Source: Flectonema sp. DT1601 (taxonomy: Eukaryota). Taken from it: DNA of 64,000 bases. The notes beneath the pieces are model-generated. The model was not told the origin of the DNA. It saw nothing but the letters and a program-made list of their open reading frames with translations, and made no database searches. The stretch covers positions 372,001-436,000 of the forward strand of contig OZ025783.1 in assembly GCA_964019425.1 (NCBI GenBank), read 5' to 3'. The position numbers and the translations under genes are program-made. This document shows positions 23,276-64,000 of this stretch, in pieces; the first letter of the stretch is position 1; each line of letters opens with the position of its first letter.

Positions 23276-23655
23276 TTTATTATCCTTTGATGGGATATTT
23301 AAAGAGAAAAGAATATGATAACAACAATATTAACAGAACACAAAAAAATTCTCACTACTTCCTATTCCCCAATGACCAGTACTTCGTACCGATTTATAAA
23401 ATTAAAACTTTACTAAAAAGTGTTGGTGATTTTTTTTTTTTTTTTTTTTACTTTTTCGATTCTGAAAAAAAATAGTAGCAAAAAGATGCCACAACTAGGT
23501 ATAAAACTGACGGAAAGAAGAAAAAAAAAGGAAACATTAAAACTAAAATAGCAAGAAGGGAAGGGCTATAAATACTTGTAGCTACACGTATCCAGTGATT
23601 CTGAACACAGCGGGGATGACATCAATTCATCATTTCCGTAGCAAATCCAAGAAAC

Positions 23656-23687
<32 letters not shown>

Positions 23688-23822
23688 CATTCAGATAGTA
23701 GTAATACCGAGACACACAACGATTTTCGTTCGGTGCAGAAAAAAAAAGAAAAAAAAAACTTGGCTATTCCAAGTTGAGATTCCCAAACCCGATGCAACAA
23801 AAAAAGAAAAACCAAATATAGT

Positions 23823-24211
23823 GATACGTTGTTTTTGTGTTACACAGATGCTTCATTAATCTATTGTGTTCTTTTAGTTTGTAGTGTTTGGAGTAGGCAT
23901 GGTATACAAGAAAAAAGAAAACAACTACCTGTCTAGAATGAAGGACCTATCGAGCGGCCCCTACTGACTGTTAGATAAAGCTTAACAACATCACTCCACA
24001 CGAATTTAGAGCGTTGTCTTACTTCGAGTTTACCATTCACAGAAACGGTTGTTTTGATATTAATAAAAGAAAACTAAATACAGGGATACGTTGTTGTTTT
24101 TGTGTTACACAGATGCTTCATTGATCTATTGTGTTCTTTTAGTTTGTAGTGTTTGGAGTAGGCACGGTATACAAGAAAATAAAAAACAACTACATGTCTG
24201 GCAGGAAGGAC
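23823..24211. repeat. Two ~125-bp direct repeats (23823-23946, 24085-24211) around a ~135-bp spacer
   Basis: Near-identical gatacgttg...cacagatgcttcatt...ggagtaggca.ggtatacaag...gaaggac. Confidence 0.9.
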
Positions 24212-24406
24212 GAGTAAACAGTAAACAAGACATCGATTCGGCGTAGTTATTTTATAGTTTTAGAAATCGATTATTATTATTATTATTACTTTCTTTGATT
24301 TTTTCAATTTTTTTTTTTTTTAAAAAAAAAATTGAAAAAGTGAAAAGAACATAATTTTCTCAACAGCTCACTGTTTCTATTAAACAAAAATAAAATAAAA
24401 AGAAAG

Positions 24407-24655
24407 GGGAGACGTATGTTCGATTTTGTAAAAATTACAACTGTGTTGTATCATAAAAACATAAAGATAATTTAGCATAATAAAGTAACTATTAGGTTTC
24501 GAGAGTAATCCATATACCTCTTACCTCTATTCTCTCTCATCAGTATGGTGTAGAAGTAAGTCAGTCAAATGTTGAGAGTAGGACTGGAATGTAGTTACTT
24601 TAAATGTTTGTAATAAAAAACATAAAAAAAAAATTAAAATACTTTATCAAGTTCC
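24407..24655. mobile_element. Foldback/MITE-like element enclosing hammerhead-like copy 1
   Basis: Homologous to 38274-38565; inner inverted repeat AAAGTAACTA/TAGTTACTTT; G-run left end. Confidence 0.6.
24494..24560 (-). ncRNA. Putative pseudoknotted hammerhead ribozyme, copy 1
   Basis: Minus strand: CUUACUUCUA-CA-CCAUA-CUGAUGA-GAGAG-AA-UAGAGGUAAG-AGGU-A-UAUGG-AUUA-CUCUC-GAA-ACCU. Confidence 0.7.
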
Positions 24656-24660
24656 ATAGG

Positions 24661-24702
24661 AAGAATGCAAGGCAATACTAATACTGCTTGCCTTGCATTC
24701 TT
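24661..24702. repeat. Perfect 15-bp inverted repeat
   Basis: AAGAATGCAAGGCAA / TTGCCTTGCATTCTT with a 12-nt loop. Confidence 0.9.
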
Positions 24703-27192
24703 TCCAATTATTATTATTGTTGTTGTCGTTGTGTATTTATTTCCGTACTTTCAAGTTCATAAGTAATGGAAGGGCGGTGAAAAGAAATTGTACCAAGAAA
24801 ATCCATTGTTCGGTAGAGAGAGAATTGCGGCAGCGTAAACTTACCTAATCGACTTTATAAGGATTTTTGTACCAGTTTGCGCACAAATAAAAAAAAAAGT
24901 AAAAAAAAGTAAAGTTGGCTAACAAGCTCTCTCACAGGTAAAAACAAAACAAAATACTACTAATTGATCAAACGAAAAAAAAAGAGTGGGTTAGAAACCT
25001 GCACTGACACCAACAGATACGGAAACAGAAAGAACAAAAACCAGAGAATGAAGCTCAACAAGGTTCTGTGTTTCAACAATAAAAAACAAGAAGGGAGGGA
25101 AGAAAAAAAATAATAAAAAAGAGAAAATCAGATAAAGCAGCATCTTAGGAGAAGAAAAAGGGGGAAAAAAAAACACTCAACAAAAATGGAAAAACTGCCC
25201 AATAGAGATCACAGTTTTTCTATGAAACACATCATTGGTGAGTTTCCATTTGTCTGCTGATGCTTAATATATATTCGCTCTTTTTCTTTTTTAGAAAAAA
25301 AGATTTTTTTTTTTTTCTCCACGTAAAACATTTGTGTGGAATGTTCACACCCAAACTTCCACACATGCAAAAAAAAAAAAAAAAAAAAAGGAAAAAACTA
25401 AAAACCAAAAATGGGTGAGCAAGAATAAAAAACTTGGGAGAAAAAAAGTCCTCCATGACGAGTTTACAAAAAACGAAGAAGAAAAGATATGCCACACAAA
25501 AGGTTTATAACACTGGTACAACTAAATACCAACTCAGACTAACGTTTTCCATTATGTAGTGACGACACAACCTTTTCATCACGGTGAGATAGCAGCAACA
25601 AAAAAAAAAAAAAAAAAAAACCAAAATAGAGCATCGATAACGGATGTCACATTAACAAAGTGACCCCGAGTCGAGGAGAAAACAATTGGTTTCTAACTAC
25701 TTATATTCGTAGTGTGGTTTTGTTCATTGAAACCACAATCAGATTTCAGTCAGACTGTGAAAGCTAGTAAGGAATTCATAATGTTTACCTCCTAAAAAGG
25801 CTCGGGTTTTTTTTTTTTTCTCTAAAAAAAAAAAAAAGAAATATATGTCTTGTTAAGAAAACAAACATAATTATTGTTTACCTTTTCATACTGGGGGGAC
25901 TACTTGACATCAACTAAAAAAAAAAAGAAAAATGTCTAAATTTAAAAAAATAAATAAGTCAGCACATACGTTATTTGGATGACAAACACGAGACAGTCGT
26001 TAAGTTATAAACCTCGAAACTGAGCAAAACAAAAATAGAGTTCAGCTAAACATAGTTGCCATGCAAAAAAAAGACCAACAAATGTACTGTCGAACACGGA
26101 GACTCGGAGGCATTCCCTGTAGACTTTATCAAACTCGTACCCCTTAAAGGGATACAAGTGTGACTTATAAATAATAATCTCTTGTATTGCATCAAAAAGT
26201 TAACTAACATAAACAATTAGTAATTTATGAGACAGTGAGGGGGGAAAGGAGGGAAATCGATTTTTTTTTTTTTTTTAAATTTTTTTTTTATCAAACCACG
26301 TGGAGAGAGTTATCTCCCAGTCGAAGTTGGGAGAACCAGAAAATTTATGCATCAACCGACCTGCTTTTGCACAAGTTACAATATGAGTTTATTATAAAAT
26401 AGGGCACTAAATCGAAATATATAATTAAATAAAAAGAAGTGTGGAATATTTCAACAGAATATAAAAAAACTGATTAATGTCCATCGGAGCTCGCCAGGAA
26501 GGGTTCCATCTCTTCAACCGCTGTTCGTTTTATAACGAGTGCGAGTTCCTCTTCATCGGAGCTGTAGTCTTCTTTCTTGCGCTTTTCATTATCGTCGGTG
26601 AGGAGTAGAATTCCTTCATTCAACGATGTGCATGGTCGTTATCATTATTATTATCCTGCGGTAGAGTTTTTCCTTAAATCATGCGAAAACAATATTCTGG
26701 ATGTTTAAAATATCCGTCAAAGTAGTCGAATGATAGACGTCGGTCTGTCACTCCTTCGACAATGTCTCGAAGGATCAAAGGAGATATGGGCTACTAAGTA
26801 GTACTAGCCTTGTTTAAAATGAATGCGGCGACTATTTTGAGTACTCCAGGGGACCGAGATCCACGAACTGGTGGATATCTGTTGTGTTTTTGTTTGCTTG
26901 CTATCCCCAGAACAGTTAAAGATACCCCATTCGGGGGATAGTTTTTGATCGCCAAGTTCTACTGGTTGATGTTCGTAGAACGTTTGTTGCAGTTTTTGCA
27001 AATAACTGAAATTATTTATTCGGTTTAAATAAAGATGGTCTGCAACAAGATTCGTAGGAGTATGGCAGTTCCCATCGATTCCTGAGCAGTGGGGGCACTA
27101 TGCCAGCCGAGGCTAACTTTGTCGTCAACGTTATGGTTTCGCCTGCTTGCACAAGTTAACACTTTGTGCCAAACATCTCCACTACTAACACT

Positions 27193-37577: not shown

Positions 37578-38273
37578 GACTCCAGCCTGAGAAAATAATA
37601 AAATTTAAAAAAGAAAATCCAGATAAGATTTTTTTACGAAAAGCAACGCGTCTAACGTTGCTGCAGACGACCCAATCCGTAGCCGCATATATTGTCACTG
37701 AATTATGAAAGTAATAATAATTATAAAAGTGTACTTCGCAGCCAATTTTTTTTCTTTTTTTTTTAAAAGAAGAAACTTGAAGATGGGAGAGGAAATAAAA
37801 ACAGCTGTGTAGTATAACAATAAGGTCTAAACAAGCCTCATTCAGGGGTAGCTCATACTTTGAGACCTTTCGAAAATGGAGGAAGGAGTTTGCGATTAAA
37901 AGAACATTCACTAGGAGAGAGAAAAAAAAAATTAAAAAGAAAATATAAAAACACCCACGAAATAACAGAAATCGCAGTAACAGCAACCTGGTTTACGTTT
38001 TTTACGTGTTTGAGACATAAAACATAAAACTACCAAAAATTGCCACACTGTTCTTAACTTCCGAAATTGCGTGTGTGTGTGTATTGTGTGAGTTTTTTTT
38101 TTTTTTTTTTTTAATTGTTGCTTGTACAACAATGGGTAATAATATGGGAAAAGGGAAACATCAGAAAAGAAAAAAAGGAAAATTCAGGTTTAAAAAGATA
38201 AATCAATTTATTCTAATTTTTTTATTTTAAAAAAAAAAAAGAATTCGTCGGCTTTCTTGCAAACAATTTCGTG

Positions 38274-38565
38274 GGGGGATAACTGTTTGATTTTGTACGT
38301 AAAATACAAATGTATTGTATCATAAACAACATAACGATAATTTAACATTAGTTTTAGATACAGTGACTAGGTGTGATGCGTAACTCAGCCTTTTAAAGTA
38401 ACTATTTAGGTTTCGAGAGTAATCCATCTACCTCTTACCTCTATTCTCTCATCATCAGTATGGTGTAGAAGTAAGTCAATCATCTGTTGTGACTGAAGCA
38501 TCTTAGTTAGCAAGACTAGGATGTAGTTACTTTGTTATAATGTTTATATATAAAAAAAAACATTC
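38274..38565. mobile_element. Foldback/MITE-like element enclosing hammerhead-like copy 2
   Basis: Homologous to 24407-24655; long imperfect inverted arms; left arm repeated at 53087-53150. Confidence 0.6.
38408..38475 (-). ncRNA. Putative pseudoknotted hammerhead ribozyme, copy 2 (possibly degenerate)
   Basis: As copy 1, but with an extra U after CUGAUGA and a G.A mismatch at the first stem I pair. Confidence 0.5.
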
Positions 38566-40367
38566 TTCTTGTTGTTACTAGTTCGTAGCGCACTACTAGC
38601 GGAGCACTCTTCTACAATAAATGTAGAAAGTATAGTGGGGGAGGGAATCATAAGTTCGCTTCATGATGTAGAAACAGTAATAAACTATAGAACTCAAGAT
38701 AGCGAAGTATGAAAGAAAATTTAGCTTGCTTCATTTCAAAATAGTATTTAAAATGTAAAGATAACAGATAACAACAGCAATGTTGTTATCCGTGTATAAT
38801 CCGTGGTTTGAAGAAAAAAAATAAAATAAAAACCGTAAACTGATATTTCGATTTTACGGAGATATTGCAAAAAAAGAAAAATAAACACCAGCTTGTACAA
38901 CAAAAAAAAATTATTGATGATGGGAAAAGCGTGGAACTTGACAATGTAAAAAACAGAAACAACTTTAGCTAAAGGGGACGATGAATGTAATAGAGCCTTT
39001 GATCTTATTCGAGACACACAACAGAGTTAAGGAATCACTTGACAACTTTGCGTCAAAAAACCAGAAACCCATTTTACGGTAAAACGTATTTGCTTTTTTT
39101 TCGCAGTCCAATTTTTTTTTTTTTTTTTGTAATGACGGACAACGGGCAAAACGAACAAAGGAAAAAAAAATGGGGAGAAAAAAAGAATTAAAAAAAATAA
39201 AAAATACCAGTTTAAGAATAACAATCAGAATGGTTTATTTTTTATTTCATTTTATTCTTTTTTTGTTTTACAGAACATGTTGAAAGTTAGCTGAATAGAT
39301 CTTAAGAAAGGGCTATCCAGAGGAAAGGTTACATGCAAAAACATTGCACGAAATATCAACAACAAAAGAAACGGTCGAAGAAACAGTAACTAACATTTTT
39401 TTTTTCCAATTTAAAATTAAAATCCCAGGAAGAGGCCAGACCTCCCACCACATTGCTTGAAAAGCAATCAGCGGTTTAAAATTAATTATACGATCCCGTC
39501 ACAAATTGTACGGAGGCAAAAAAAAAAAACTTTTTTTTTTCTCTGGTGCAAAATGAGTAAATCGATATGCAGACTTTAATGTCCAATAGGAAGGTGGTAT
39601 TAGGAAGAAAGACAACAATAGATCAAAACTCTAAGAAGACAAAACACGTACGTAATAAAGACTGACGGGCAAAATTGCTACTTTCAACAAGATAATTTTT
39701 AAAAAAAAAAGGGAAGATGAATAAACAACAGAATTACTTTCACTACCTCGTTTGGAGACAGATAGAGAGTTCGGCTGCCACATCCTAACACATGTCCTGT
39801 TTAAAACAAGGACACAATTTTTAGTGTTAACCAATTTCTTTTTTTTTTTTTTATTATTATTGTTCAACAAAAAGATTTTTTTTTGATCTCAAAAAAAAGA
39901 AAAAAACTTAATAAAAATAAAAATAAAAACAACAGCCAAGGTAAAAAAAAAGAAAAACTTTGGAATAAATGTTAAATAATTATACATACAAACTTGTGAC
40001 AAATGGTAATTTTTTTTTTTTTTGTTAAAGTCAGGGAAGTCAACACCAAACCCACAGGGTATCAACAATTTAGTATCACAACTCTCGCAGGCGAGAAGAG
40101 GGTGACGACCACCGTTTGCACGAAGCAGGTAGAGTAAGAGACGGCTGATAACGCCAATTTTTCACCAAGTAGGAGAACACGTCACTACTAAATTACAACC
40201 TGGAATACAAAAGTTAGTTAGCAAAAGCAAGAACAAAAATAAAAGAGGAACCTCATTTTTTTCTTACTTTTTTTTATTATTCACACCGTTGTTTTGTGTG
40301 CGCAACCTGAGCATGCTCCGATTTCCCAAAGACCTGAGCGACGAGCCCCTACTGAAGGTTCGAGACG

Positions 40368-40529
40368 CCAGACAAATCACTCCACCAACCAGGAGCGGCC
40401 ATGCACCACCACACAATGGATCGAGAAAGAGCTCTCAATCTGTCAATCCTTTCATTGTCCTGACCTAGTAAAATTCCCCGTGTTGAGTCAAATTAAGCCG
40501 CATACTCCACGCCTGGTGGTGTCATTCCG
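40368..40529 (-). pseudogene. Isolated ~160-bp 18S (SSU) rRNA fragment, euglenozoan-like
   Basis: Reverse complement: GGAATGACACCACCAGGCGTGGAGTATGCGGCTTAATTTGACTCAACACGGGGAA...GGATTGACAGATTGAGAGCTCTTTCTCGAT...GGTGGTGCATGGCCGCTCCTGGTTGGTGGAGTGATTTGTCTGG; flanks are not recognisably rDNA. Confidence 0.92.
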
Positions 40530-41006
40530 GGATTATTTACGTATGCGATGGGCAGAACCAGAAAAAAAAAAGAAGAAAAAAAACGTTGATAAAGAATGAA
40601 TTACTTTGTGTTCTAATAGAATCACATGAAGCATCAAAGGTAGCAAACAAAGAAGGAAAATTCCTCATTTCATGGTTCGCTTCTTTTTTTTTTTTCTTAA
40701 AAAGAATTATGAAATGGGAAACAAAAAAGAAAGGATTCCACCATTACCCAAATAAAGAATTGGCTTTATCATAAACTATACAGAAAATAGTAATATAACA
40801 CTTGTTGATATTTTGTTTGTGTCCGAAAACCGTGAACCGACTTAAACTGATAAAGCTAAAGGAGGTTTACGTGTGCTGCTAATGTTCTTTTTTTCTTTTT
40901 GCTCTTAAATGCAGCAAAAATGCAAAAGAAAAAGAAGGGAAAAAACGTGTCATTTTATCCATCTTTGAGGCGGACAGACACAAAGGAAGAACATCTTGGT
41001 TGTGAA

Positions 41007-41037
<31 letters not shown>

Positions 41038-42517
41038 GCGAGGCAGACAGTAAAAGAATAACAATATGAGAGTTGAAAAAAAAAAATTATTTCATTTCCA
41101 GCTGTATCTTTTATGTTTACTTCAGCTCGGGCAGCCACAAAAGCAATGTTAAGGATCCAGTGACCAGATACGTGTTATACGGCATGACCTGAAAAATAGA
41201 ATTCCCAAAAGATTTTTTTTTGAGGCAAACAGACAAGACAGGTAGAACATTTCAGTTGCGGCCGTATCTTTCTTTTTTTTTTTTTTTTTTTTCTTTTTTC
41301 CCTAAATTAAACACATAAATCGACAAACAAACAACGATTCGGATTTTTTTTTATTTTTTTGTTTTGTTTTGTATTTTTGAGTCCTAATGTTGATGAAAAC
41401 ACATAAAAAGACATAAACAGTGGCACGGTTGAAAAAGAAGGGGAAGAAAAAAAAAAAAAAAGAATGGAAAGTTATAGCCCAAAATACGCTGAACCCGGGT
41501 AGAGACTCTTGTTTCCGCATGTTAGTCGTACTTTCGATACAAAAGTCAAACTGTGTATGGTCAGGAATACACCGACGATAATAACAGATTACAGTACATT
41601 GCCGCAGACAGAACCTTACTTAAATTATTCCATCCTGGTTGAGAACCAACCCATGTCAGCGTCACCACGTATATTGGGCCATTTGCAAAAAAAAAAAAAA
41701 GAGATGTATTTTCGGGACGCTTCTCAAAAGAAAACTTCCTGTACCCCTAGATTTTTGTATCTTTTCGAGACACACAGCTAAGGCACACAATATAAAGAGT
41801 AAAGTGATTGGAAAGGGAAAAAAGAAAACAGACGCTCGCGACGTAGTTTTTGACCTTTTTAAGAATAACAAACAAGAACTAATAAAAAAAATAATTGGCA
41901 CCTCGCTAAATAATTCTCACGCCTTGTTTCGATATTTCATTCTTTCTCGGGTCCGAGATTAATATATATCACTTAGTACTACCAAAGTAATCATACAAAG
42001 AGAGTTTATTGTCCCTTTAACATTCATGTGTAAGACTACATCCCTGATTGCACCTCATTAATTGCAAAAAAAAAAAAAAAGAGGGTTGCTGAAAAAAACT
42101 TTTTTGATATAGCTTCTTTTTTTTCAAATCAAAGTGATATGTAACTACGCCTATTAAAAAATCAAACTAACAACAGAAGAAAAAAAAAGTACAGCAATAA
42201 TGCGTCAATAATTTTAGGGGGGAACAAAAAGGAATCGATAACATGATCGTAGAAAAGTCACAATAATTATTAAACAATAATGATATGAGGGTCTTCCCCC
42301 CCAAAAATTGGGCCAGGCTATCCTGTGGGCACCTAACACCCAATCCGAGCCACCACCCCACGAAAAATACTATCCAAAAAACTCAAATCCGGTACTGGGG
42401 CATCCTCTAACTGCTCACCAGTTTATTTTTTTCATTTTTTTTTAACTGTATTAGGTTTGCCTTGTAACTCTATTAAGAACCCTCAAAACACCCAAAATGA
42501 GCTTGTCAGTAGTACTT

Positions 42518-42635
42518 GGGGGGTAACTTGATACTAATATTAAATGGAAAGCAACTTGAAACTGGCAAAAACGAGAATAGGGTTCGGCCAAACCTGGTTG
42601 CAATATAAGAAATCAACAGTTGGTATCGATAAAAA
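42518..42635 (+). mobile_element. ~120-bp G-headed hairpin element, copy 1
   Basis: Near-identical copies at 52198-52307 and 52888-53008. Confidence 0.75.
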
Positions 42636-44726
42636 GGGGGGGGTTCTGCATCGCCTCATATGCATGAAAGAAAAAAAAAAAAAAACCGTAAACCTGTGAG
42701 GGAGAGGGAAAATTAAAGAATAAATATAAAAAAATAGAAGATAAGAAGTTATACGTATACTATTCAATAAATACTCGTTGGTTCATTCTGCAGTCAAGAT
42801 ACGGTCCATGACTCATGCAAAGCATCATTTATTTATTTATTTTTATTTATTTATTTGCTAGGAGCCAAAAATTAAAAAAAAGGAAGAGAGAAAAAAACAG
42901 AATTTGTGTAAGTTGGGAGAAAGAACGTGCAATAAAAACAAATGCTGCTGCTCCCTTGTTTTTTTTTTCCCCTCCTTTTTTCTAAAAACTGTGACGAGAG
43001 AAACAAAAGAATTCTCTCCCGTCGGTCTCAGCTGCTTAACGAAACATACCAAAATACCAGCTTGAAAAAGCTGGTATTTTTTTTTTTTTTTTTTATTTAG
43101 TTTAAAACCAAATCGAAAAAAAGAATAATATAACAAAAAATGAAAATAAAAAAAAAGAGGAGAGAATAGAAAAAAAATAAATATAGCAAAAACTTGTATT
43201 CAAAAAAAAAGCATCCTCGATTGAGGGTTACTCTTTTTTCTGCTCACGTCATCATAGCTGAAACAAGCAACTAAGCGCATCGCAACATAAGCATCGCGAT
43301 GTCTTTAAGAAACCCTGCTTCTGAGTACAGTTAATGTACTCCACAGGAGTGATGAGACAAACAAATTCCGTCAAACATTAGCTGGGAATCCGTTTTGGAC
43401 TGAAAAACCTAACAGAATGAACAACCCACATATCATGGGGGGTTCACAAAACAACTGATAGATAGTTCAAAGTCCATGTGATATAAATAATTAGTTTAAG
43501 GACAATAAAGAGCAAAGTCATTAGCCATCAGTAAACTCAGGCAATTCAGATGTATAGCTTCAGGGGCCATCTGACCCCTAAAGCGAGCAAGGTAATAGTA
43601 TTATATATGGGTAGGTATTCATAAGTGCATTTTTAAGCTATTGTATATGCTACAGAAGAATGCTACAGAAAAAATACAAATACAAATACAAATAAAAAAA
43701 AATAATTTTTTAGCCAAGGGTAAATGCTGACAATTCGGTCCACAAAATAAATTTTGCAGATGTATTTGAGCACCTTAAGATGATCATTTTTTAATCAAAA
43801 CGAAAGAGTAATGAGTAAATCAGGGGGCAATAAATTACAACGAGGTCCACCGGACTGGTGACAATGTTTCCAATGTAGCATGCCAGGGGGTAAGACAGGC
43901 AATGCGCCTGACGTGGGTGTAGTAGAGTCCTGTTTGTTTGGAGCGTTTCTGTTTACTGACAGAACACCCGTCAGGAGGTAACCTGTACTTGGCTTATACT
44001 TCTACCAATTTTCGCAAAAAAAAAAAAAAAAAAAAAACTTCAAACGTATATGAGGAAATATAAAGCAACTTGAAATTGGCTAAAAACCAATTGAGTTGCT
44101 TGCCGTAATGCTATAAATATCTGCATTGTATCAAAAAGATAACTAATGTAAACAATTAGTAATTTATGAGACAGCCGACTAAAGGTAATGTTAGTAGAGG
44201 TACACAATCTAATGTCGTAAAAGCCTCCACACTAAAATCAAGTGTTTGTAACTTATCTAAATACACTCCTCCCTTCCATGTTGTTATTTAGTACAGAATC
44301 GAGTTATGGGGGAGGTACAAATATAGAAAACGTGAGCATGCAGGGAGTGCGTAGGTTTATCGAAATTGCAATCATTCGTGTCATTCCAAGGGAAGAAAGC
44401 CGCTACGACCAAGGTTGCCTTATGGCTAGCTAAGTTGTTAAATAAAAGGTACAAAGAATCATGAATGACATGTACTAACATTCAGACATATGGCAGCCAC
44501 AGTTGGGTTGTGAATCCGACCGCGTACTACAAGTTGAGCACCCCTGCCTTGCAGTTCGTTACAGCGGATGTAGATTTCTTTTCTTTTTCTTGTTTTCGGT
44601 TATCATTTTTTTTTTTTTTAAAACTAGTTAGTTTATGTGAGATTCTTTAGTTAGTATTAATAGTAGTTATCAGTCAAAAAAGAAAAAAAAATTCAAAAAA
44701 TCGTAGGAAACAAACAAATAATGGGT

Positions 44727-44802
44727 TGGTTTCAGGCTATTAAGAAACCTTTCTTCGTACCATTCCCCTTACCCAGCCCTCTTCAGCGAAGAGGTCAAGG
44801 GG
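44727..44802 (-). ncRNA. Putative pseudoknotted hammerhead ribozyme, copy 3 (divergent sequence)
   Basis: Minus strand: CCCCUUGACC-UCUUCG-CUGAAGA-GGGCUG-GGUAAGGGG-AA-UGGU-A-CGAAGA-(12 nt)-UAGCCU-GAA-ACCA. Confidence 0.7.
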
Positions 44803-46456
44803 GACACTGCGGTATCAGGCCTGTCCTACTCATAGCGTTTGCCCTTCTCACCAAAGGGATCACGTCAACATGGTTATTTATTTTAAGTTTGTTGGGAAAT
44901 AGTAAAACAGAAAAATCATTTGTTTGATTTTTTTTTTTTTTTTTTTCTTCTTCTTCCCGAATGTAGTGAACTTTTTTAAAAAAATCCAGTCCGGGGGGGA
45001 AAAAAAAAGAGAGAGACGGCAAACTTACCTGATCACGTGTGGTGCTTCGCCACCAAAGGTGTGGAAACACTTAGAAATCGAACAAACAAAACAAACAAAC
45101 AAGGCAGGATTGCACATCTTCTACTCTCCAAGGCGGGAACGTAAATAAGAAAGCGACAAGAAGCGTGAAAGAAGAAAAGAAAAAATATTAAAGAAACAAG
45201 ACATTTTAACAAGCCTTCATCGTGAATACCTCCTCCAATGAGAAAGGAAACACAAAAAGAGGAAAAATGACAACGATTGACTTGTCTGCTTTGATGGTGG
45301 CGCATTTCAAAAACTGAAGGACACAATAGGGGACGACCATCACATGTTCTATTAAAGAAAAGACTGCCGTTGACTAAAGACGATTAGAACTAACTTTGGA
45401 GTAACTCCAAGGCCCCTAACCTAACCAAGCAATAATTTCGCAGTACAAAAACACAAACGGGATGAGACAAGATAGTGCTAAGAAACAAGAACCAAAACAA
45501 CGACAAATCTAGCAGTTTGGAAACACAAATAATGTGACAATGTCATAATGATTATCAATACCAAGTTGTGTAATTAAGGTAATAATTAAATCAAATAGAA
45601 TAAATAGGTAGATATATATTTTACCAAGAAATACATTTTGCCACCAAAAGGCGTACTATTTTTTTTTTTTTTTTTTGCAAAGAGAGGAGAAAAAAAACCA
45701 AAAAAAAAAAAAAAAAAAAAAAAACTGAAATTTTCTCCTCGTCTTAGTGAACCACTGCGGGCAGCAGTCTAAGGAAAGATAAAAGGAAGAGAATTTTTTT
45801 TTTTTTTTTTTTTTTTCACAAGAATTTTTCCTCACAAGAATAATTCCTGGCCAAGGTTAATGGTTCTCCAATTTGTCTCTAAGAGTTCCTTTGCTAGAAA
45901 TCAGTCTTGTGAGGAAGACTCACACAAGTTTTTTTTTTTTTTTTTTTTCCAACCTAAATTTATGAGAAAACCTCCCGAGAATGAATTCCTCAAGAGAACT
46001 TCCTTTTACAGTTATTTTGGTAAAACCCTACGCACCACATTTCCAACTTTTTTTTTTTTTTCTTTTTTTCTGATTATTTTTTCTCAGGATTTTCTCTGGT
46101 GAATTTCTCAAAAAAAAACAAAGAAAGAAAAAAAAAAAGGGGGATTTTAATACGATACGAAAAGAGAATACTGCAGGTCTTTGGGGGTAATAAATAATCC
46201 CCCAACGAACCAGCAATGCAACAGGTTACTTTATGTCTCAATGCGACTAGCAGCTTCCAATAGATACGGAGCTTTTAAAACACTGAACCAAAGTAAGAAT
46301 GCATTTATACCTCGAGTAGAATACCTTTTAAGTTTTAGCAGTGTGGTTAAACACATTATTTTTTTCTTTTTTTTTTTCATTAGTCTATTTTACCTCTACA
46401 GTCGGGGTTTCGCACGGCGAAAGATGCAAAAAAATTTGCTTGAAAAGCAAAAGGTT

Positions 46457-48814
46457 TTAAGTCGGTAATGCAGTATTCTCTACGATGGTGGAAGGTGACT
46501 TGTCTAATTTGATTAATTCTTCTATCCAAATGTCGAGTCTTCGCCTAATTATGAAGTGGGTTTCGTTTGAACTTCCCTCAGAAAAGGTACTACTTTCAGT
46601 ATTATCTAAAGCCGAACGTGCCTGAGAGAATCTCTCTGATCTAATGAGACGGAATGCTTCGTTGTTGGCAGCAGTTGCATCTACTGCGCCTGCGCCAGAA
46701 TCAGCTGCGTACATCCATTCAGCATTTGGGATGTTTGCTTTTGAGGCAAGACCATAAAGGATTGAAGGCTTACGGTCATCAATAAATGTAAAATCTATCG
46801 GAGTGATATCAATGTATTGAACAACACAAGTCATTGATCTGATACAGGCCTCTCCGACAGAACTATCAATTAAGATTCCAACAGGGTTCGGAATATCATA
46901 TTTAGCAACTAATGGTATACTGAGCTTTGATAATTGTTGTGCTATGTGAACACAGTGCCCCAGTATTGTGAATTTCTTTGTAACATTACCGAAGATTCCA
47001 CACTGGACTTTACCTTGAGCAATTCCAATACTTGGTCTTGACGACTGAAGACAAGGATGCTTACCAGCCAACGCTGCTACTGCATCTCTTACAGCAAGCG
47101 CTGCTACAGCTGACCTCTGAGTAAGACGACCGTAAATATTAATAGAAGCGTTCCATGTTGTCAGTACTGACCCTCCATCTGTAAGCTCACAAACACCTTG
47201 TGTATCTTTGCACGTATCAATAATCGTTTCATAAAAATCACCAAAATAACTCTGAATAGTAGTAGTTGATGCTCCATTGATAAGTGATATAAAAGGAGGG
47301 TTGGTAGACATTGCTCCAACAACTCGCTTCTTAACAACACCTGGATCGATATTGTGGAAGTCATTGTCTGAAGATTCAGATGGTGCGAATGTACTTGTTT
47401 TCCTAACTGTAATAAACTGAGAATTGGTACTGTAGTTGTCAACTGATGTACAGACTGATCCCGCATCACCTGGAGAGTCTGGAACATTATTCTCCAACTC
47501 TAACTGTCCAAGAAGAGATTGTGGTAAGAACTTACTGTATTCATCTAACTTTTCGATTACTACACGGAATCCTACTTGAATGTCTGCAATCTCCTTCACA
47601 AGTGAGTTCCCTTCAATGCATTCAAGGGCTAAAGCAAATTCCAAATTCCCAACAAAGTTAAGAGCCTTTGTGAGTTTTGAAAGAGGAGTAGCAACAGTAA
47701 CGATCAACATTACAGTAAATACCATGGCGACAACACCAATCACAATGTTGATTATTAAAGTGAATCGAGTGCTCGCATCAATGTCTCCAAATACGAGGTC
47801 TTTCTTCATTCCATAAATAAGTTCAAAATCCCACTCATGAAAAGTCATATCAGTGACCTGTACCAAATACCCTCCAACATTAAGTGTTTCACCGTATGGA
47901 GTGTTGAGGCTTGCTTGGTATATTTTCTTAGTGTCGGCATCTTCTAAGTCATCAGGGTTGCTACTTCCGAATGGCATACCATGTGAGGCTACTAAGACAA
48001 CATTCAACCTGCGGTTTACAATAAGTATTCTCTCCTGTTTTCCATACTGGAGAATGTCACGTACTGTCTCACTAAAGATGTGAGTTGTAATAATCCCATA
48101 TGAGGTTGCTAGCAGGTAACCAGATGCATTCCTCAAAGCAGCATGACACTGCAGTGTCAATGCACCTTGAGTCGTATCCGCCATGAGTCCAGCATCAAGA
48201 GGCATGCAGGCTATGTCTTTGTCTTTGTTTTGTTCACCGTCAAATTCATTTTCAGCCCAGCATTGATCTATCCAAATATCACAAGTTGCATTGACAGGAT
48301 TTTCCTTGCCAGGATGTGGGAATAAAGTAGCAGTCGTTATATCTACACCAGAAGGCACCATCACCCCATTGCTGTAGTTCCACTGCTGTAATGGAGTTTT
48401 TTCATATAAACCAGTAGAATCAGTTGTTGAATGCAATCGAACAAATGATAAAATATCCATCTCATGAGGACCGTTCCTCACATGAATTCCAACATAAGTT
48501 AAATCTGGCATTCCTAACATTAGTGATGTCCATGATGCCCTGAATGGATCAAAATCATGATTATTTAAATATGGGTAATTCCTGAAATCTGACATCATCG
48601 GGTAGTTCATCAGGTATGCAGCAGTTCTTGCGATGGACATTTGATTGCTGACTCTGGCAGTTACTCTACTTGATCTATCTTTAATTAAAGAATTCGATAA
48701 AGTTCCCAAAGACTTGTCCGTTGTAATCATCGATAACGTAATCGTGATGGCACTCGCAGCTGCGATAATCAGAGTTATCGAAATTTCGAAAAAACGAAGT
48801 GGAATTCGAAGCAT
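46457..48814 (-). CDS. Receptor-type class III adenylate/guanylate cyclase-like protein (2 TM, HAMP-like), catalytically degenerate
   Basis: TM-extracellular-TM-HAMP-like (PLSKL...VKEIADIQ...YSKFLPQSLL), then cyclase-like SIGIAQGKVQCGIFG and FTILGHCVHIAQQL, plus EWMY. Start taken at MLRIPL. Confidence 0.75.
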   Translation of the reverse strand: MLRIPLRFFEISITLIIAAASAITITLSMITTDKSLGTLSNSLIKDRSSRVTARVSNQMSIARTAAYLMNYPMMSDFRNYPYLNNHDFDPFRASWTSLMLGMPDLTYVGIHVRNGPHEMDILSFVRLHSTTDSTGLYEKTPLQQWNYSNGVMVPSGVDITTATLFPHPGKENPVNATCDIWIDQCWAENEFDGEQNKDKDIACMPLDAGLMADTTQGALTLQCHAALRNASGYLLATSYGIITTHIFSETVRDILQYGKQERILIVNRRLNVVLVASHGMPFGSSNPDDLEDADTKKIYQASLNTPYGETLNVGGYLVQVTDMTFHEWDFELIYGMKKDLVFGDIDASTRFTLIINIVIGVVAMVFTVMLIVTVATPLSKLTKALNFVGNLEFALALECIEGNSLVKEIADIQVGFRVVIEKLDEYSKFLPQSLLGQLELENNVPDSPGDAGSVCTSVDNYSTNSQFITVRKTSTFAPSESSDNDFHNIDPGVVKKRVVGAMSTNPPFISLINGASTTTIQSYFGDFYETIIDTCKDTQGVCELTDGGSVLTTWNASINIYGRLTQRSAVAALAVRDAVAALAGKHPCLQSSRPSIGIAQGKVQCGIFGNVTKKFTILGHCVHIAQQLSKLSIPLVAKYDIPNPVGILIDSSVGEACIRSMTCVVQYIDITPIDFTFIDDRKPSILYGLASKANIPNAEWMYAADSGAGAVDATAANNEAFRLIRSERFSQARSALDNTESSTFSEGSSNETHFIIRRRLDIWIEELIKLDKSPSTIVENTALPT

Positions 48815-53008: not shown

Positions 53009-53802
53009 ATATGTGTTCGAATATGGGATTCAGGGGCCACATACTACAGGTTGAGCGCCCCCATGCCCTGTAGACCGTTACAGCTTGGGGGGTTAACTGT
53101 TTGATTTTGTATGTAAAATACAAATGTTTTGTATCATAAACAACATAACGAGCTTGGGGGGTGAAACTTTAACAATGTAAAAACCCTAGGTACTGGGGGA
53201 AATCTTTTCTCATTTTCTTTATGCTGTCATTGTTAAGAAATTCTGTACTGAAAGGTTCCTTTTTTTTTTTTTTTTTTCTTTTTTTTTTCCCTCTCATGCA
53301 CGTATTTTTATTTTTATGATATGAAATTTTCCAGACTTCACCACATTACAAAATAAAATATATAATATAACAGATTCGTTGTTGTGACAGAACTGTCACC
53401 TACTATACCACAATGAACGCGTTCACCATTAAAAATCATGCTGAACGTTGACATTCCGTGGTACGTAATTCAGAATCATCCAAAGAGTTCCTGAGGGAAA
53501 GTAATGTTTGTGTAAAATAGAAATAAAGAACCCCAAATAAACACATTGCTAAAGAATGCTCAAACATTGTGTATCAGCGCTTTTCACTTCTGCCGAAACG
53601 ATTTTTTTCGGGAAAACACGGAGCTTAAAATGATGAATGGCGTGACAGAGGCAGGATTAAATCCACATTCACTAAAACAACATCATCTCAATAAAAGAAA
53701 GGAAAAGATGAGAAAAACTAAATATTCAAAAGTCATATTGGTTTGTGTGACTTTTTCAAAGGAACTCCTCTGATTACGTCCCAATACGGTGATAACGAGA
53801 GT

Positions 53803-54336
53803 CTACTTACTCTTAACGGCTTCAGCTTGCTTCCAAGCGTGGATCTGCTTGCAAACACTGTTGTTGACCTTCTCCTGAAGTTCCTTTTGGAATCCCATCT
53901 TAAACAGAACCTCAACCCAAACAAAAAAAGGTGCCAACAACAACGACTGTCCGAATGATGTCAACAAAGCAGGGGCTTTCTTCTCAAAGATACCATGACC
54001 TACGAATTGAAGAATCCAACTAACAACGTGAATCGCAATGGCGATAGTGTAAGGGTTCTCTACCTCCTTTAGAAAGATGGTACTGGTTTCTTGCATAATG
54101 TACAAAAAGAACAAGTACGGAGTAGCAATGACCGGATCCATAAGCATATAAAACACTCCGTATACAATAGCAGTCACTTGCGGTGCGTTCACTGGAAGTC
54201 CGGTTTCAACTTCGCCAACGAACACCATCGCTGACCATAAAATCAACGGCACACAAACAATATGAATCCACTGGTTGATAGCATCGTGATGGTAGGCTCC
54301 GTAAAACGCGAGCTGCTTCTCCTTGTCGATAAACAT
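53803..54336 (-). CDS. MPO1: MPO1/DUF962 2-hydroxy fatty acid dioxygenase-like membrane protein, copy 1
   Basis: FYGAYHHDAINQWIH.VCVP, WILQFVGHGIFEK.APAL and LLAPFFVWVE. Confidence 0.9.
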   Translation of the reverse strand: MFIDKEKQLAFYGAYHHDAINQWIHIVCVPLILWSAMVFVGEVETGLPVNAPQVTAIVYGVFYMLMDPVIATPYLFFLYIMQETSTIFLKEVENPYTIAIAIHVVSWILQFVGHGIFEKKAPALLTSFGQSLLLAPFFVWVEVLFKMGFQKELQEKVNNSVCKQIHAWKQAEAVKSK

Positions 54337-54858
54337 ATTAAAGTAGTTGTGGATGTGCTATGGAAGATGAGGATATTATATTAAATAAACCTTACTACAC
54401 TCAAAGATAAAGCAATAAAGTTAAACCTAAAGTATGACAACAAACTTACCTTTCACGTTGACATCCCGTGGTGCATATTCTACAGAATCAACCTAAAGAG
54501 TTCCTAAAGGAAAGTAATATTTGTGTATAACAGAAATGAAAACCCCTAAACAGATACGTTGTTGTTGTTAAAGAGAGCAAAGAACGTCGCGAAGTACGTT
54601 TCAAAGTAGGAATGCTCAAACAATGTTCCGGTGATTTTCACTTCTGCCGAAGCGATTTTTTCGGAAAAACACGGAGCTTAAAATGACAAGCAATAGAGGC
54701 AGGATTAAATCCACATTCACTAATATATCATCTCAATGGTGGAGAGAAAGAAAGGATAAAAAAACAACTTAAATTCAAAAGTCGTATATTGTATTAGTTT
54801 GTGTGACTTTTTCAAAGGAACTCCTCTGATTACGTCCCAATACGGTGATAACGAGAGT

Positions 54859-55392
54859 CTACTTACTCTTAACGGCTTCAGCTTGCTTCCAAGCGTGGAT
54901 CTGCTTGCAAACACTGTTGTTGATCTTCTCCTGAAGTTCCTTTTGGAATCCCAACATAAACAGAACCTCAACCCAAACAAAAAAAGGTGCCATCAACATC
55001 GTCTGTCCGAATGATGTCAACAAAGCAGGGGCTCTCTTCTCAAAGATACCATGACCTACGAATTGAAGAATCCAACTAACAACGTGAATCGCAATGGCGA
55101 TAGTGTAAGGGTTCTCTACCTCCTTTAGAAAGATGGTACTGGTTTCTTGCATAATGTACAAAAAGAACAAGTACGGAGTAGCAATGACCGGATCCATAAG
55201 CATATAAAACACTCCGTATACAATAGCAGTCAGCTGTGGTACGTTCACTGGAAGTCCCGTCTCAATTTCGCCAACGAACACCATCGCTGACCATAAAATC
55301 AACGGCACACAAATAATATGAATCCACTGGTTGATAGCATCGTGATGGTAGGCTCCGTAAAACGCGAGCTGCTTCTCCTTGTCGATAAACAT
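54859..55392 (-). CDS. MPO1: MPO1/DUF962 protein, copy 2
   Basis: Same motifs; tandem duplicate. Confidence 0.9.
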   Translation of the reverse strand: MFIDKEKQLAFYGAYHHDAINQWIHIICVPLILWSAMVFVGEIETGLPVNVPQLTAIVYGVFYMLMDPVIATPYLFFLYIMQETSTIFLKEVENPYTIAIAIHVVSWILQFVGHGIFEKRAPALLTSFGQTMLMAPFFVWVEVLFMLGFQKELQEKINNSVCKQIHAWKQAEAVKSK

Positions 55393-55963
55393 ATTAAAGT
55401 AGTTGTGGGTGTGCTATGGAAGATGAGGATATTATATTAAATAAACCTTACTACACTCAAAGATAAAGCAATAAAGTTAAATCTAAAGTATGACAACAAA
55501 CTTACCTTTCATCAGAAAAGATAATGCAGGATACTAAAGGTCAGTATTGTGCGAACCAATAATGTGAAGAACACGAGCGAATGTTTTAAACTTATCGAAA
55601 TTACATAAATAGACCGCAGTGATGATATTTTAGTCATATAAATGCGTTCACCATATTTGAGATCCTAAAGGAAAGTAATACTTGTGTATAACAGAAATGA
55701 AGAACTCCAAATAAACACATTTTTGTTAAAGAATCAATTCTATCGATGCTTTTCACCGAAACGATTTTTTCGGAAAACACGGAACATGAAATGATAAAGT
55801 GACAGAGGCAGGATTAAATCCACATTCACTAAAACAACATCATCTCAATGGTGGAGAGAGAAAGGATGAGAAACAACTTAAAAAAATCAAAAATCATATT
55901 GGTTTGTGTGACTTTTTCAAAGGAAATCCTCTGATTACGTCCCAATACGGTGATAACGAGAGT

Positions 55964-56497
55964 CTACTTACTCTTAACGGCTTCAGCTTGCTTCCAAGCG
56001 TGGATCTGCTTGCAAACACTGTTGTTGACCTTCTCCTGAAGTTCCTTTTGGAATCCCATCTTAAACAGAACCTCAACCCAAACAAAAAAAGGTGCCAACA
56101 ACAACGACTGTCCGAATGATGTCAACAAAGCAGGGGCTTTCTTCTCAAAGATACCATGACCTACGAATTGAAGAATCCAACTAACAACGTGAATCGCAAT
56201 GGCGATAGTGTAAGGGTTCTCTACCTCCTTTAGAAAGATGGTACTGGTTTCTTGCATAATGTACAAAAAGAACAAGTACGGAGTAGCAATGACCGGATCC
56301 ATAAGCATATAAAACACTCCGTATACAATAGCAGTCACTTGCGGTGCGTTCACTGGAAGTCCGGTTTCAACTTCGCCAACGAACACCATCGCTGACCATA
56401 AAATCAACGGCACACAAACAATATGAATCCACTGGTTGATAGCATCGTGATGGTAGGCTCCGTAAAACGCGAGCTGCTTCTCCTTGTCGATAAACAT
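55964..56497 (-). CDS. MPO1: MPO1/DUF962 protein, copy 3
   Basis: Protein identical to copy 1. Confidence 0.9.
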   Translation of the reverse strand: MFIDKEKQLAFYGAYHHDAINQWIHIVCVPLILWSAMVFVGEVETGLPVNAPQVTAIVYGVFYMLMDPVIATPYLFFLYIMQETSTIFLKEVENPYTIAIAIHVVSWILQFVGHGIFEKKAPALLTSFGQSLLLAPFFVWVEVLFKMGFQKELQEKVNNSVCKQIHAWKQAEAVKSK

Positions 56498-57206
56498 ATT
56501 AAAGTAGTTGTGGGAGTTATGGATAGCAAGCTGTAGGAAAGTTGAAATAACTTATTTTTATAACACGTTACGTCTACACAAACAGATCTCCAATTTACAT
56601 CTCTGCGCCCCGAAAGTGAATTCCCTTCCTGGAAATATAAATATTTTAGTAATCTTTTTGTTTTTGTTTATTTTTCGTAATAATACAGGCAAAGCGATAC
56701 CTGCTGAAATCTGAAAAGAAAAGTGAAGCACTTTGGTTTAAGAAGTGCCGCAGTTTTCTTCTCCAGGGAGATGAAAATTTTAGTACTGAGAAGGGATTGA
56801 TACGCAGGTGATGACGCCACTCACCATCTAACTTGTTTCATGCCACGATGCTGTTACATTTGTCTTTTTTTTCCGTTAGAAAAATGGAGATTTCTGTGAC
56901 CCTTCTAACATCAACCTGGATTCCCCAAACAAAAAGAGAGGAAGAAAGTAACTTTTAACATTTTTTTTTTTAAAGGGCGTTTTTTTTTTTTTTTCTTCTT
57001 GTTTTTTTTTCAATCACTGTGCGCTATTAGACAGGTTGCCAGGTTGCCCCCCCCGACGGGATTAAATCCACTGTCGTATTTAGGTAGCTTCCAGCAACAC
57101 GTTTGTCCTAGTTACTCAGTAGAAAGAAGAAAAAGTAATAAATAAATAATAAAGAAATTATTGCAACCAAGACAATAATAAAACATTGCATTGCTGTGGT
57201 AAGTCA

Positions 57207-57740
57207 CTACTTGCTTTTAGTAGTCTCAGCTTGCTTCCATTCGTGTAGCTGCTTGCAAACAATGTTGTTGACCTTCTCGTGTAGATCTCTTTGGAATCCC
57301 AACTTAAACAGAACCTCAACCCAAACAAAAAAAGGCGCCATCAACAATGACTGTCCGAATGATGTCAACAAAGCAGGTGCCCGTTGTTCAAACACACCGT
57401 GACCTATGAATTGAAAGGTCCAACACACAACGTGAAGAGTAATAGCAAAGGTGTAAGGGTTCTCTACCTCCTTCAGAAAGATGGTACTGGTTTCTTGCAT
57501 AATGTACAAAAAGAACAAGTACGGAGTAGCAATGACCGGATCCATAAGCATATAAAACACTCCGTATACAATAGCAGTCAGCTGTGGTACGTTCACTGGA
57601 AGTCCCGTCTCAATTTCGCCAACGAACACCATCGCTGACCATAAAATCAACGGCACACAAATAATATGAATCCACTGGTTGATAGCATCGTGATGGTAGG
57701 CTCCGTAAAACGCGAGCTGCTTCTCCTTGTTGATGAACAT
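57207..57740 (-). CDS. MPO1: MPO1/DUF962 protein, copy 4
   Basis: Same motifs; most divergent C-terminal half. Confidence 0.9.
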   Translation of the reverse strand: MFINKEKQLAFYGAYHHDAINQWIHIICVPLILWSAMVFVGEIETGLPVNVPQLTAIVYGVFYMLMDPVIATPYLFFLYIMQETSTIFLKEVENPYTFAITLHVVCWTFQFIGHGVFEQRAPALLTSFGQSLLMAPFFVWVEVLFKLGFQRDLHEKVNNIVCKQLHEWKQAETTKSK

Positions 57741-58261
57741 ATTTAATAAGAATGAGGGGTTGGGGTAGGTGCGTAAAAAAGCTGAAGCGGAGAATGAATT
57801 AACCTAACACAACACAACAACACGCGAGGGGAGGAATCACAAGACACCTCCACCATAGATCGGCATCATTCGATGAGAATAATAATTCAATGTAGAACGT
57901 CTGCCGAAAGTGCTCAAAAAAAAAAGTCCTTCGACGCATACCCATAATGATATGATCATCCTTTGAGAGCCCAATTGGAAATTAATTTTGCGAAAAAACG
58001 AATGGGAAGAGAAACGAATCACAAAAAAGAAAATATAACAACCGGAAGAGTATGTTAATTAAGAAGATTTTCTCGTTCAAAAGAACCATTTCAAATTGGA
58101 ATGGTCTACACGTGACGCGATCGAATTCACAAACAAAAACGCTAAGCCGACAATAGATTAGACTTTATAAATAAAAAACATTCATATCGACTGTATCTTA
58201 GAAATAAGAAATAACAACGTGAAGAAAGAAAGAAATAATAATAATAATAATAATAACAACT

Positions 58262-58357
58262 ATTCAGATTAGCCTTTTATTTCGTTGAACGCAAGCAAGT
58301 AAGAAACGATGGCTTTTAAATCTGAAGAGGTTCTTCACTGACTGTATTTGGTATAAA
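58262..58357. repeat. Structured dispersed element, copy 2
   Basis: Shares stems and tail with 28898-29012. Confidence 0.7.
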
Positions 58358-63342: not shown

Positions 63343-63777
63343 TTTATAAAGTTATTTAAATAGATAGAAACTGTTGAGAATGAAAATGAATTCAAATCAA
63401 AAAACAAAAAGAAAATCTAAACCACCACGACCACCAACCTACTTGGAGGAGGATACCATCATATGAAATAAACCTGAAAAAAACACATAAATAATATTAT
63501 TACTCTCACTCGTCACTCTAACCTGTTTATACCACGAGATGAATAGATAACTTCATTCACCAAAAGGATGATATCCAAATCGATAGGTGAGTACAAGTAC
63601 CCAATTATAAGAAAACAATCATCACTTTGAAAGAGAGGATGAGTGAGACTGACAACAGATACAGTCATCGGTTGAAGGAAGAACAAAAAGAAAAAAAGAA
63701 GAAGGGGAAAAAAAAAATGCAGTTTACTTTTCTTAAAAGGAAAGAACTGCCAGAATAAAACTGTGAAATTTATTTTA

Positions 63778-63946
63778 GAGAAAACCCTATAATTCCACGC
63801 AAATGTTACCGAAATATCTGATCTCAACTTCCTCAAGTTTCCGAAACGTACAGCTCCGTAAACTATTTTGTGTGGAGCTGTCCATTTCGGAAACTTTTGT
63901 GTTGAGATCGGACATTTCAGAAATTTGTGGAATTATAGGTTTTCCC
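63778..63946. repeat. ~170-bp long imperfect palindrome (foldback/MITE-like)
   Basis: Nested arms AAAACCCTATAATTCCAC/GTGGAATTATAGGTTTT, GATCTCAAC/GTTGAGATC, AAGTTTCCGAAA/TTTCGGAAACTT and ACAGCTCC/GGAGCTGT. Confidence 0.9.
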
Positions 63947-64000
63947 TTTCATTTTATTTTATTATTGAAACTGGCTAAATAGAAATGGCAACAAGCGATA

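Follow-up and report, generated by a model that had tools for sequence, protein, structure and literature searches.

The minus strand of positions 44802-44727 in the window (here, the whole 64-kb stretch of Flectonema sp. DT1601 DNA that was analysed) very probably encodes a hammerhead ribozyme of type CSG, by descent or design. It is the third of three copies in the window. The reading favoured here, with some confidence, is that copy 3 is a somewhat worn type-CSG hammerhead belonging to a short non-coding retroelement whose mobilising enzyme is probably Penelope-like (Naiad/Chlamys-type). Taken separately, a retroelement as the carrier of copy 3 is likely, and a Penelope-like identity for the partner reverse transcriptase, argued by analogy, falls slightly short of an even chance. 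What is new is the diplonemid host and the repeat context for type CSG, the likely presence of added helices, and a candidate link to Penelope-like elements. Diplonemids are abundant marine eukaryotes with repeat-rich genomes.

Anatomy and chance level of copy 3

Hammerheads with the block order C-S-G are a non-circularly permuted form described as type CSG (Eckert, Friedrich, Weinberg and Weinberg, 2023, PMC10085705). As this type is already in print, a new topology is ruled out. Each strand that the original prediction had placed in copy 3 is present at its coordinates on the minus strand; the list below also gives the blocks to which the strands belong, and a predicted outer closing helix (P0) and hairpin (H).

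44802-44793, minus: U5', the 5' strand of the helix that links stem I to stem II (the U helix)
44792-44787, minus: I5', within block C
44786-44780, minus: CUGAAGA, the core of block C
44779-44774, minus: II5', within block C
44774..44792, minus: block C (I5', CUGAAGA and II5')
44773-44765, minus: U3', the 3' partner of U5', followed by AA
44762-44759, minus: stem III strand in block S
44758, minus: A17, in the GUA triplet
44757-44752, minus: I3', in block S
44752..44762, minus: block S (stem III strand, GUA triplet and I3')
44751-44740, minus: 12-nt linker, as against 4 nt in copies 1 and 2
44739-44734, minus: II3', ending in U11.1, in block G
44733-44731, minus: GAA, in block G
44730-44727, minus: ACCA, the stem III strand in block G
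44727..44739, minus: block G (II3', GAAA and stem III strand)
44829-44819, minus: predicted 5' strand of P0, part of 44803..44829
44816-44803, minus: predicted hairpin H, 5 bp
44703..44715, minus: predicted 3' strand of P0

The blocks follow one another in the order C, S, G, and stems I, II and III (6, 6 and 4 bp) abut the core. Stem I consists of six Watson-Crick pairs, stem III of four pairs, and stem II of six, two of which are G-U. The U helix has nine pairs and a 1-nt bulge (duplex energy -11.8 kcal/mol) and is joined to stem III by a 2-nt link. All 13 core positions are complete (C3, U4, G5, A6, N7, G8 and A9; G12, A13 and A14; A15.1-U16.1; H17). One of the two wobble pairs in stem II is 10.1-11.1, which is G-C in copies 1 and 2 and in the CSG consensus; this departure had been raised as a caveat when the fold was proposed, and it is indeed seen. 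Given the GUA triplet, the cut is predicted to fall between 44758 and 44757, at a place set by analogy with the published sequences (PMC10085705) and in agreement with the site first proposed.

A scan of the 64-kb window for the blocks in all six orders, with thresholds (stems of at least 4 bp, span of at most 100) chosen once the copies were already known, returned three matches, every one in CSG order (CUGAnGA - cleavage site - GAAA) and on the minus strand. Their cores lie at 44786 (copy 3), 24543 (copy 1) and 38458 (copy 2), with CUGAUGA in copies 1 and 2. Relaxed scans of the window found no further or half CSG copies. Across 3337 block-wise dinucleotide shuffles of the window, there were 198 matches in any order, 29 in CSG order and six in CSG order with a U helix of at least 7 bp, the last giving 0.0018 expected per shuffled window against three observed. 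Given this excess, and a single order and strand for all three matches, it is extremely improbable that copy 3 is a chance arrangement with no ribozyme ancestry. Such a reading could draw on the plain (nested) folding z-scores for copy 3, which are not significant, and on Rfam searches of the whole window and of 600 nt around copy 3, which returned no hammerhead family. However, neither Rfam models nor nested folding can represent the CSG knot, and both miss the fold.

When copies 1 and 3 are compared over 20 pairs of stems I, II, III and U, 12 pairs have changed on both sides, two on one side and six are the same, and all 20 still form. Together with the excess over shuffled windows, this bears out the proposal that the knotted hammerhead is kept while its stem sequences differ. 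The stronger claim, that the fold is selected rather than due to chance, holds in that the copies lie far past chance expectation. Copy 3, however, has no flank homology to copies 1 and 2. Judging from the sequences, the stem changes may therefore reflect a separate origin rather than within-family covariation; the comparison comprises two independent stem sets only, with common descent unproven. Whether independent or covarying, the changes point to selection on the fold. In a MAFFT alignment of the copies, stem II of copy 3 is misaligned.

The hexamer GGUAAG, put forward earlier as common to U3', provides no evidence: copies 1 and 3 have it at opposite ends of U3', and shuffles yield a shared 6-mer in 6% of cases. 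It was rejected as a conserved motif, being not significant and missing, by eye, from U3' of the published and nematode CSG sequences.

Copies 1 and 2, predicted added helices and the carrier repeat

The features of the other two copies and of the repeat that carries them are as follows.

24481..24602, minus: copy 1, an intact type-CSG hammerhead with a predicted hairpin H and closing helix of 11 bp
24560-24494, minus: hammerhead proper of copy 1, with the predicted cut at 24515/24514
38395..38533, minus: copy 2, a type-CSG hammerhead with a predicted hairpin H and closing helix of 10 bp
38475-38408, minus: hammerhead proper of copy 2, with the predicted cut at 38429/38428
24406..24480, minus: 3' tail of the copy-1 repeat, ending in a C-run
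38273..38394, minus: 3' tail of the copy-2 repeat, ending in CCCCCC
53082..53162, minus: 5'-truncated sister of the copy-2 repeat, with no ribozyme, between 12-nt direct repeats

In copy 2, CUGAUGA is followed by an extra U, an A-G mismatch lies beside the cut site and there is an inserted extra hairpin, the insertion being predicted to form its own hairpin inside the junction. All three copies are predicted to have the outer helix P0 and, immediately 5' of U5', the hairpin H, which would result in a P0/H/U/III junction. In copies 1 and 2, P0 comprises 10-11 contiguous Watson-Crick pairs, a length matched by 0.7-1.4% of 1500 random places, and both of its strands are unchanged between the two copies (10/10 each). 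For these copies, the modelled four-way P0/H/U/III junction is likely. In copy 3, most pairs of P0 and H have pair probabilities of 0.8-1.0, the P0 sequence is unlike that of copies 1 and 2, and the joint chance level of P0 and H is 1.7% (n=4000), making the same junction plausible in the model. As independent proof, P0 of copy 3 was rejected, since on its own it is not significant (34% by contiguous pairs, 20% by energy).

The U helix of copies 1 and 2 pairs a donor-like AG/GUAAG with a U1-like strand (24562-24551 with 24526-24519, and 38477-38466 with 38440-38433, minus strand); we take this partner strand to resemble the 5' end of U1 snRNA. The U helix in these copies may mask a cryptic splice site.

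Copies 1 and 2 have about 250 nt in common. Their ribozymes have 66 identical columns and three changes, as against 62 and 15 in the 3' tail (Fisher p=0.006), and with the ribozyme better kept than the tail and P0 unchanged, constraint while the repeat spread is indicated. The repeat ends in a C-run 110-155 nt downstream of the predicted cut, with no poly(A). The sister fragment matches this end over 66 nt at 53151-53086, where it is 95% identical to copy 2, and its 12-nt direct repeats contain a C-run and form a target-site duplication. A second short insert, at 52186-52098, has a 15-nt direct repeat, beginning with CCCC, as its target-site duplication. These 12- and 15-nt repeats were picked from a total of 94 exact repeats (10-25 nt, spaced within 1.5 kb) for exactly bounding repeat modules. 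Copy 2 has a candidate 7-nt duplication with 38641-38635, at a chance level of 8%, and copy 1 a doubtful one. With three dispersed members, a common 3' end and one truncated member within a 12-nt duplication, the repeat of copies 1 and 2 has the features of a non-autonomous retroposon. At none of the copies was the ribozyme region found to be repeated in tandem or as a direct repeat, and no pseudo-LTR was found in the window. For copy 3, no target-site duplication was found at the borders and no second copy of the carrier within the 64-kb window; other repeat pieces lie 160-700 nt downstream of it.

Other repeats occur in the window. A second dispersed family with a C-run end is found at 53003-52885, 42635-42518, 52302-52198, 1249-1166, 44087-44036 and 26078-26000 (minus strand), and forms stacks with further modules at 53199-52885 and 52302-52097. 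From the arrangement of these sequences, several repeat families appear to insert into one another's C-runs. Just downstream of copy 1, 23799-23946 and 24062-24211 form a local 150-nt duplication with 89% identity. The imperfect 170-nt inverted repeat at 63777-63947, which is 75% self-complementary, is possibly a miniature DNA transposon.

Folding competition and host setting of copy 3

In the predicted minimum-energy fold of copy 3, three competing helices occur in all: block C (CUGAAGA) is trapped by 7 bp, block G (GAAACC) by its pairing with the linker over 6 bp, and one strand of stem III is trapped as well. The linker trap arises from positions 44749-44744, an exact 6-nt complement of GAAACC at 44733-44728, which can form a competing hairpin. 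A rough margin for the active fold, before pseudoknot penalties, is -6 kcal/mol for copy 3 as against -12 and -13 for copies 1 and 2, and by these models copy 3 is the weakest folder of the three. It departs from the 10 other CSG sequences in G10.1-U11.1 and in its 12-nt linker, and it is probably a weakened, damped or ageing member of a second family.

That copy 3 still cuts measurably is given marginally better than even chances. Natural hammerheads work even with a U10.1-U11.1 mismatch, in the account available in PMC3088659, and copy 3 may therefore be active; a literature search for data on G10.1-U11.1 found none. It is improbable that copy 3 is a dead relic of a CSG ribozyme, with cutting wholly lost. 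The long linker, the three traps and the small folding margin fit such a relic, and G10.1-U11.1 could have been reached by a single C-to-T change at a CpG, a dinucleotide mildly depleted here (0.81-0.86). In opposition, all 13 core positions and the four helices are intact, and the natural mismatched hammerhead is functional (PMC3088659, as far as available).

Ribosomal protein eS1 places the host as a diplonemid near Flectonema. Its identity with the Flectonema neradi protein is 88%, as against 65-69% with those of Diplonema ambulator, D. japonicum and Rhynchopus euleeides and 61% with that of D. papillatum. All Pfam-matching frames of the window are on the minus strand, so that the three ribozyme copies are sense to the genes; Diplonema genes are arranged in one-directional clusters, according to the available text of PMC10161547. 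No long frames occur in the two extended stretches that contain the copies (23330-27190 and 37600-46460). Copy 3 has a donor-like AG/GTAAGTTT about 230 nt upstream, at 45028, and copy 1 has one about 280 nt upstream, at 24844; these sequence matches suggest that the copies may lie within introns or long untranslated regions.

A tandem array of Mpo1-like dioxygenase genes lies at 53300-58300 (minus strand), with four long frames listed, 1.1-1.2 kb apart. In two of its units, the start codon is directly preceded by a GT-AG stretch of 92 nt, likely an intron in the 5' UTR, with the same donor AG/GTAAGTTT. In the non-coding DNA at 40370-40535 (minus strand), there is a fragment of 18S rRNA of about 165 nt (Rfam match at 40414-40457, E 2.6e-6); scattered rRNA pieces are known in D. 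papillatum from the part of PMC10161547 consulted.

This setting bears on the alternative that copy 3 has been co-opted by the host as a regulated cutter in an intron or long untranslated region, with the competing hairpins as an off-switch tying cutting to splicing or processing. The sense orientation of the copies, the donor-like sites upstream of copies 3 and 1 together with their recurrence in the Mpo1-like array, and the exact complementarity of the linker to GAAACC over 6 nt are in keeping with host use. Against it, a rule-based scan for acceptor-like sites found none close to copies 1 and 3, and Diplonema introns frequently contain transposon pieces, as described in the available text of PMC10161547, so that an intronic position requires no function. 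Host use is accordingly regarded as a poor prospect, and a worn hammerhead of a short retroelement remains the preferred reading.

Proposed mobilisation and relation to known systems

The case for a Penelope-like partner comes from the Naiad elements, which are said to lack canonical hammerheads and whose 3'-region cores were flagged as HHR_core/HHR_half_core (Craig et al. 2021, PMC8557442, as far as its text was available). In 35 matches to seven core motifs and in parts of the supplement to that paper, all read by eye only, six nematode Naiad consensus 3' regions read as complete CSG folds with a U helix:

Naiad_Parc: CSG by eye; U 11, I 6, II 5, III 12 bp
Naiad-1_Nbra: CSG by eye; U 12, I 5, II 5, III 11 bp
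Naiad-2_Nbra: CSG by eye; U 13, I 5, II 5, III 6 bp
Naiad-3_Nbra: CSG by eye; U 9, I 5, II 4, III 6 bp
Naiad Hcon: CSG by eye; U 15, I 6, II 5, III 10 bp
Naiad Hpol: CSG by eye; U about 16, I 5, II 5, III 9 bp

By eye, the stem sequences of these folds differ, G10.1-C11.1 occurs in 6/6 and the linkers measure 2-5 nt; in Naiad-2_Nbra and Naiad-3_Nbra, the fold forms the last ~90 nt of the consensus. Compared with the window copies, the nematode folds have an extended stem III of 6-12 bp, their triplet is mostly GUC, and pair 10.1-11.1 is G-C in every one. The remaining core-motif matches in the parts of the supplement covered are canonical type I, coding sequence or other layouts. None of the Chlamys matches reads as CSG by eye, in a search blind to motifs split by line breaks. 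Chlamys prefers (C)n targets, is often 5'-truncated and has non-autonomous partners, in the portion of PMC8557442 consulted; the C-run ends and duplications of the window repeats resemble this preference, a resemblance and not membership.

In the literature from 2021 on Naiad and hammerheads, to the extent available, no description of a link between Naiad and CSG was found. None of 97 frames (25 + 72) of the window matched Pfam families of the GIY-YIG endonuclease or reverse transcriptase, two motif scans of viral contigs for a Penelope-type reverse transcriptase gave 0 matches each, and no report of Penelope-like elements in Euglenozoa was found in the portions of the texts searched. The Diplonema elements reported in the consulted part of PMC10161547 are LINE-1-, SLACS-, R2- and jockey-like.

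The latter elements belong with the alternative in which copy 3 works as the CSG hammerhead of a retrozyme-like circular RNA or short retroposon whose mobilising enzyme is not of Penelope type (LINE, ingi-like, SLACS or R2-like), or else is a piece of viroid-like RNA that was reverse-transcribed. Besides their presence in Diplonema, the 12-15 nt duplications suit target-primed insertion by any non-LTR enzyme, trypanosome L1Tc/NARTc carry a ribozyme, albeit a different, HDV-like one (PMC3383444, available text), and SGC, a circular permutation of CSG, stems from RNA replicons (PMC10085705, available text). However, the ribozyme in the window is near the 3' end of its repeat, as opposed to the 5' end in L1Tc, the repeat of copies 1 and 2 ends in a C-run rather than poly(A), the copy loci show no tandem array, and the CSG fold recurs, by eye, in the Naiad tails covered. 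On this balance, movement by a non-Penelope enzyme or a viroid-like source is judged unlikely, and mobilisation by a Penelope-like enzyme is the reading followed below.

Under this reading, host read-through transcription would supply the element RNA, in which U, III, H and the closing helix would form a nested scaffold, with I and II as two pseudoknots building an ordinary hammerhead centre. Hammerhead chemistry employs G12 as base and G8 as acid, and its products carry a 2',3'-cyclic phosphate and a 5'-OH. The cut after GUA would set the end of the element RNA, as proposed for hammerheads in Penelope pseudo-LTRs, and the two products would be held by I, II, III and P0 (~25 bp), a pairing by which re-joining would be favoured. 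Genomic copies that span the cut would derive from uncut, re-joined or tandem templates, and a retroelement enzyme, probably Penelope-like by the Naiad parallel, would insert the copies at C-runs. Copy 3 would belong to a second family, as a member that is older or damped. More tentatively, CSG could be the standard 3' ribozyme of one branch of the N-terminal-endonuclease Penelope-like elements, with nematode Naiads among its carriers, and diplonemids could harbour an undescribed Penelope-like lineage whose short partners have a version built on a four-way junction, its RNA being cut, held together by pairing and re-joined into circular or tandem templates for insertion into C-runs.

Three protist genomic copies and six nematode Naiad tails would raise the CSG set to eleven, with unrelated stems, which would place the fold in a biological setting and supply assays and structural studies with many substrates. 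The Naiad folds, if true, would revise the statement that Naiads are without a usable hammerhead, and the CSG copies would reveal a class of genomic ribozymes that Rfam and standard descriptors overlook.

A literature search on type CSG found only PMC10085705, the available literature on non-circular permutation of hammerheads yielded no further CSG data, and no paper describing a hammerhead in diplonemids was found. The CSG fold was seen in 0/119 of the matches listed (at least 119 loci) from a metagenome scan with an over-short pattern, in 0/14 loci of viral contigs and in 0/8 loci of prokaryote genomes. With four generic patterns, 397 loci in viral contigs included nine in CSG order at 3 bp or more, none of them with stems of at least 4 bp and U of at least 7. 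Two viral contig loci, L425 and L482, carry an identical hammerhead-like motif in canonical type I order at 151-230 (plus strand), with stems of 6, 3 and 11 bp.

The published CSG-1 and CSG-2 are two soil-metagenome DNA sequences that differ at 8/66 positions, have no host or element, and cleave in vitro at the predicted site at 0.004 and 0.026 per minute; their authors called the evidence for CSG weaker than that for SGC (PMC10085705, as far as available). Compared by eye, the window copies resemble them in layout, in the I/II helix and in the 0-2 nt link to stem III, and differ in having a eukaryotic host, two unrelated stem sets and a repeat context, along with a predicted closing helix and hairpin, a GUA triplet and a 4-bp stem III. 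The search patterns given for CSG in the available source would reject all three copies for a stem III that is too short and a II-III spacer above 10 nt, and copy 3 also for CUGAAGA, U11.1 and the 12-nt linker. SGC (HRIMA-1 and variants), as far as described there, has the same knot, a short I3'-II3' linker and the I/II helix, SGC and CSG being circular permutations of each other. However, SGC opens between blocks C and S and comes from metatranscriptomic RNA replicons, whereas the window copies open between G and C and are genomic. Finally, in the available texts of PMC4209133 and bioRxiv 10.64898/2026.07.22.740005, the type I hammerheads found in canonical Penelope elements and in non-LTR retrozymes lie, like the window copies, near a retroelement end in many copies, some decayed, and share with copy 2 an extra nucleotide between 9 and 10.1. 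In contrast, those hammerheads have a circular order, are often minimal and occur in tandem arrays, while the window copies are knotted and dispersed.
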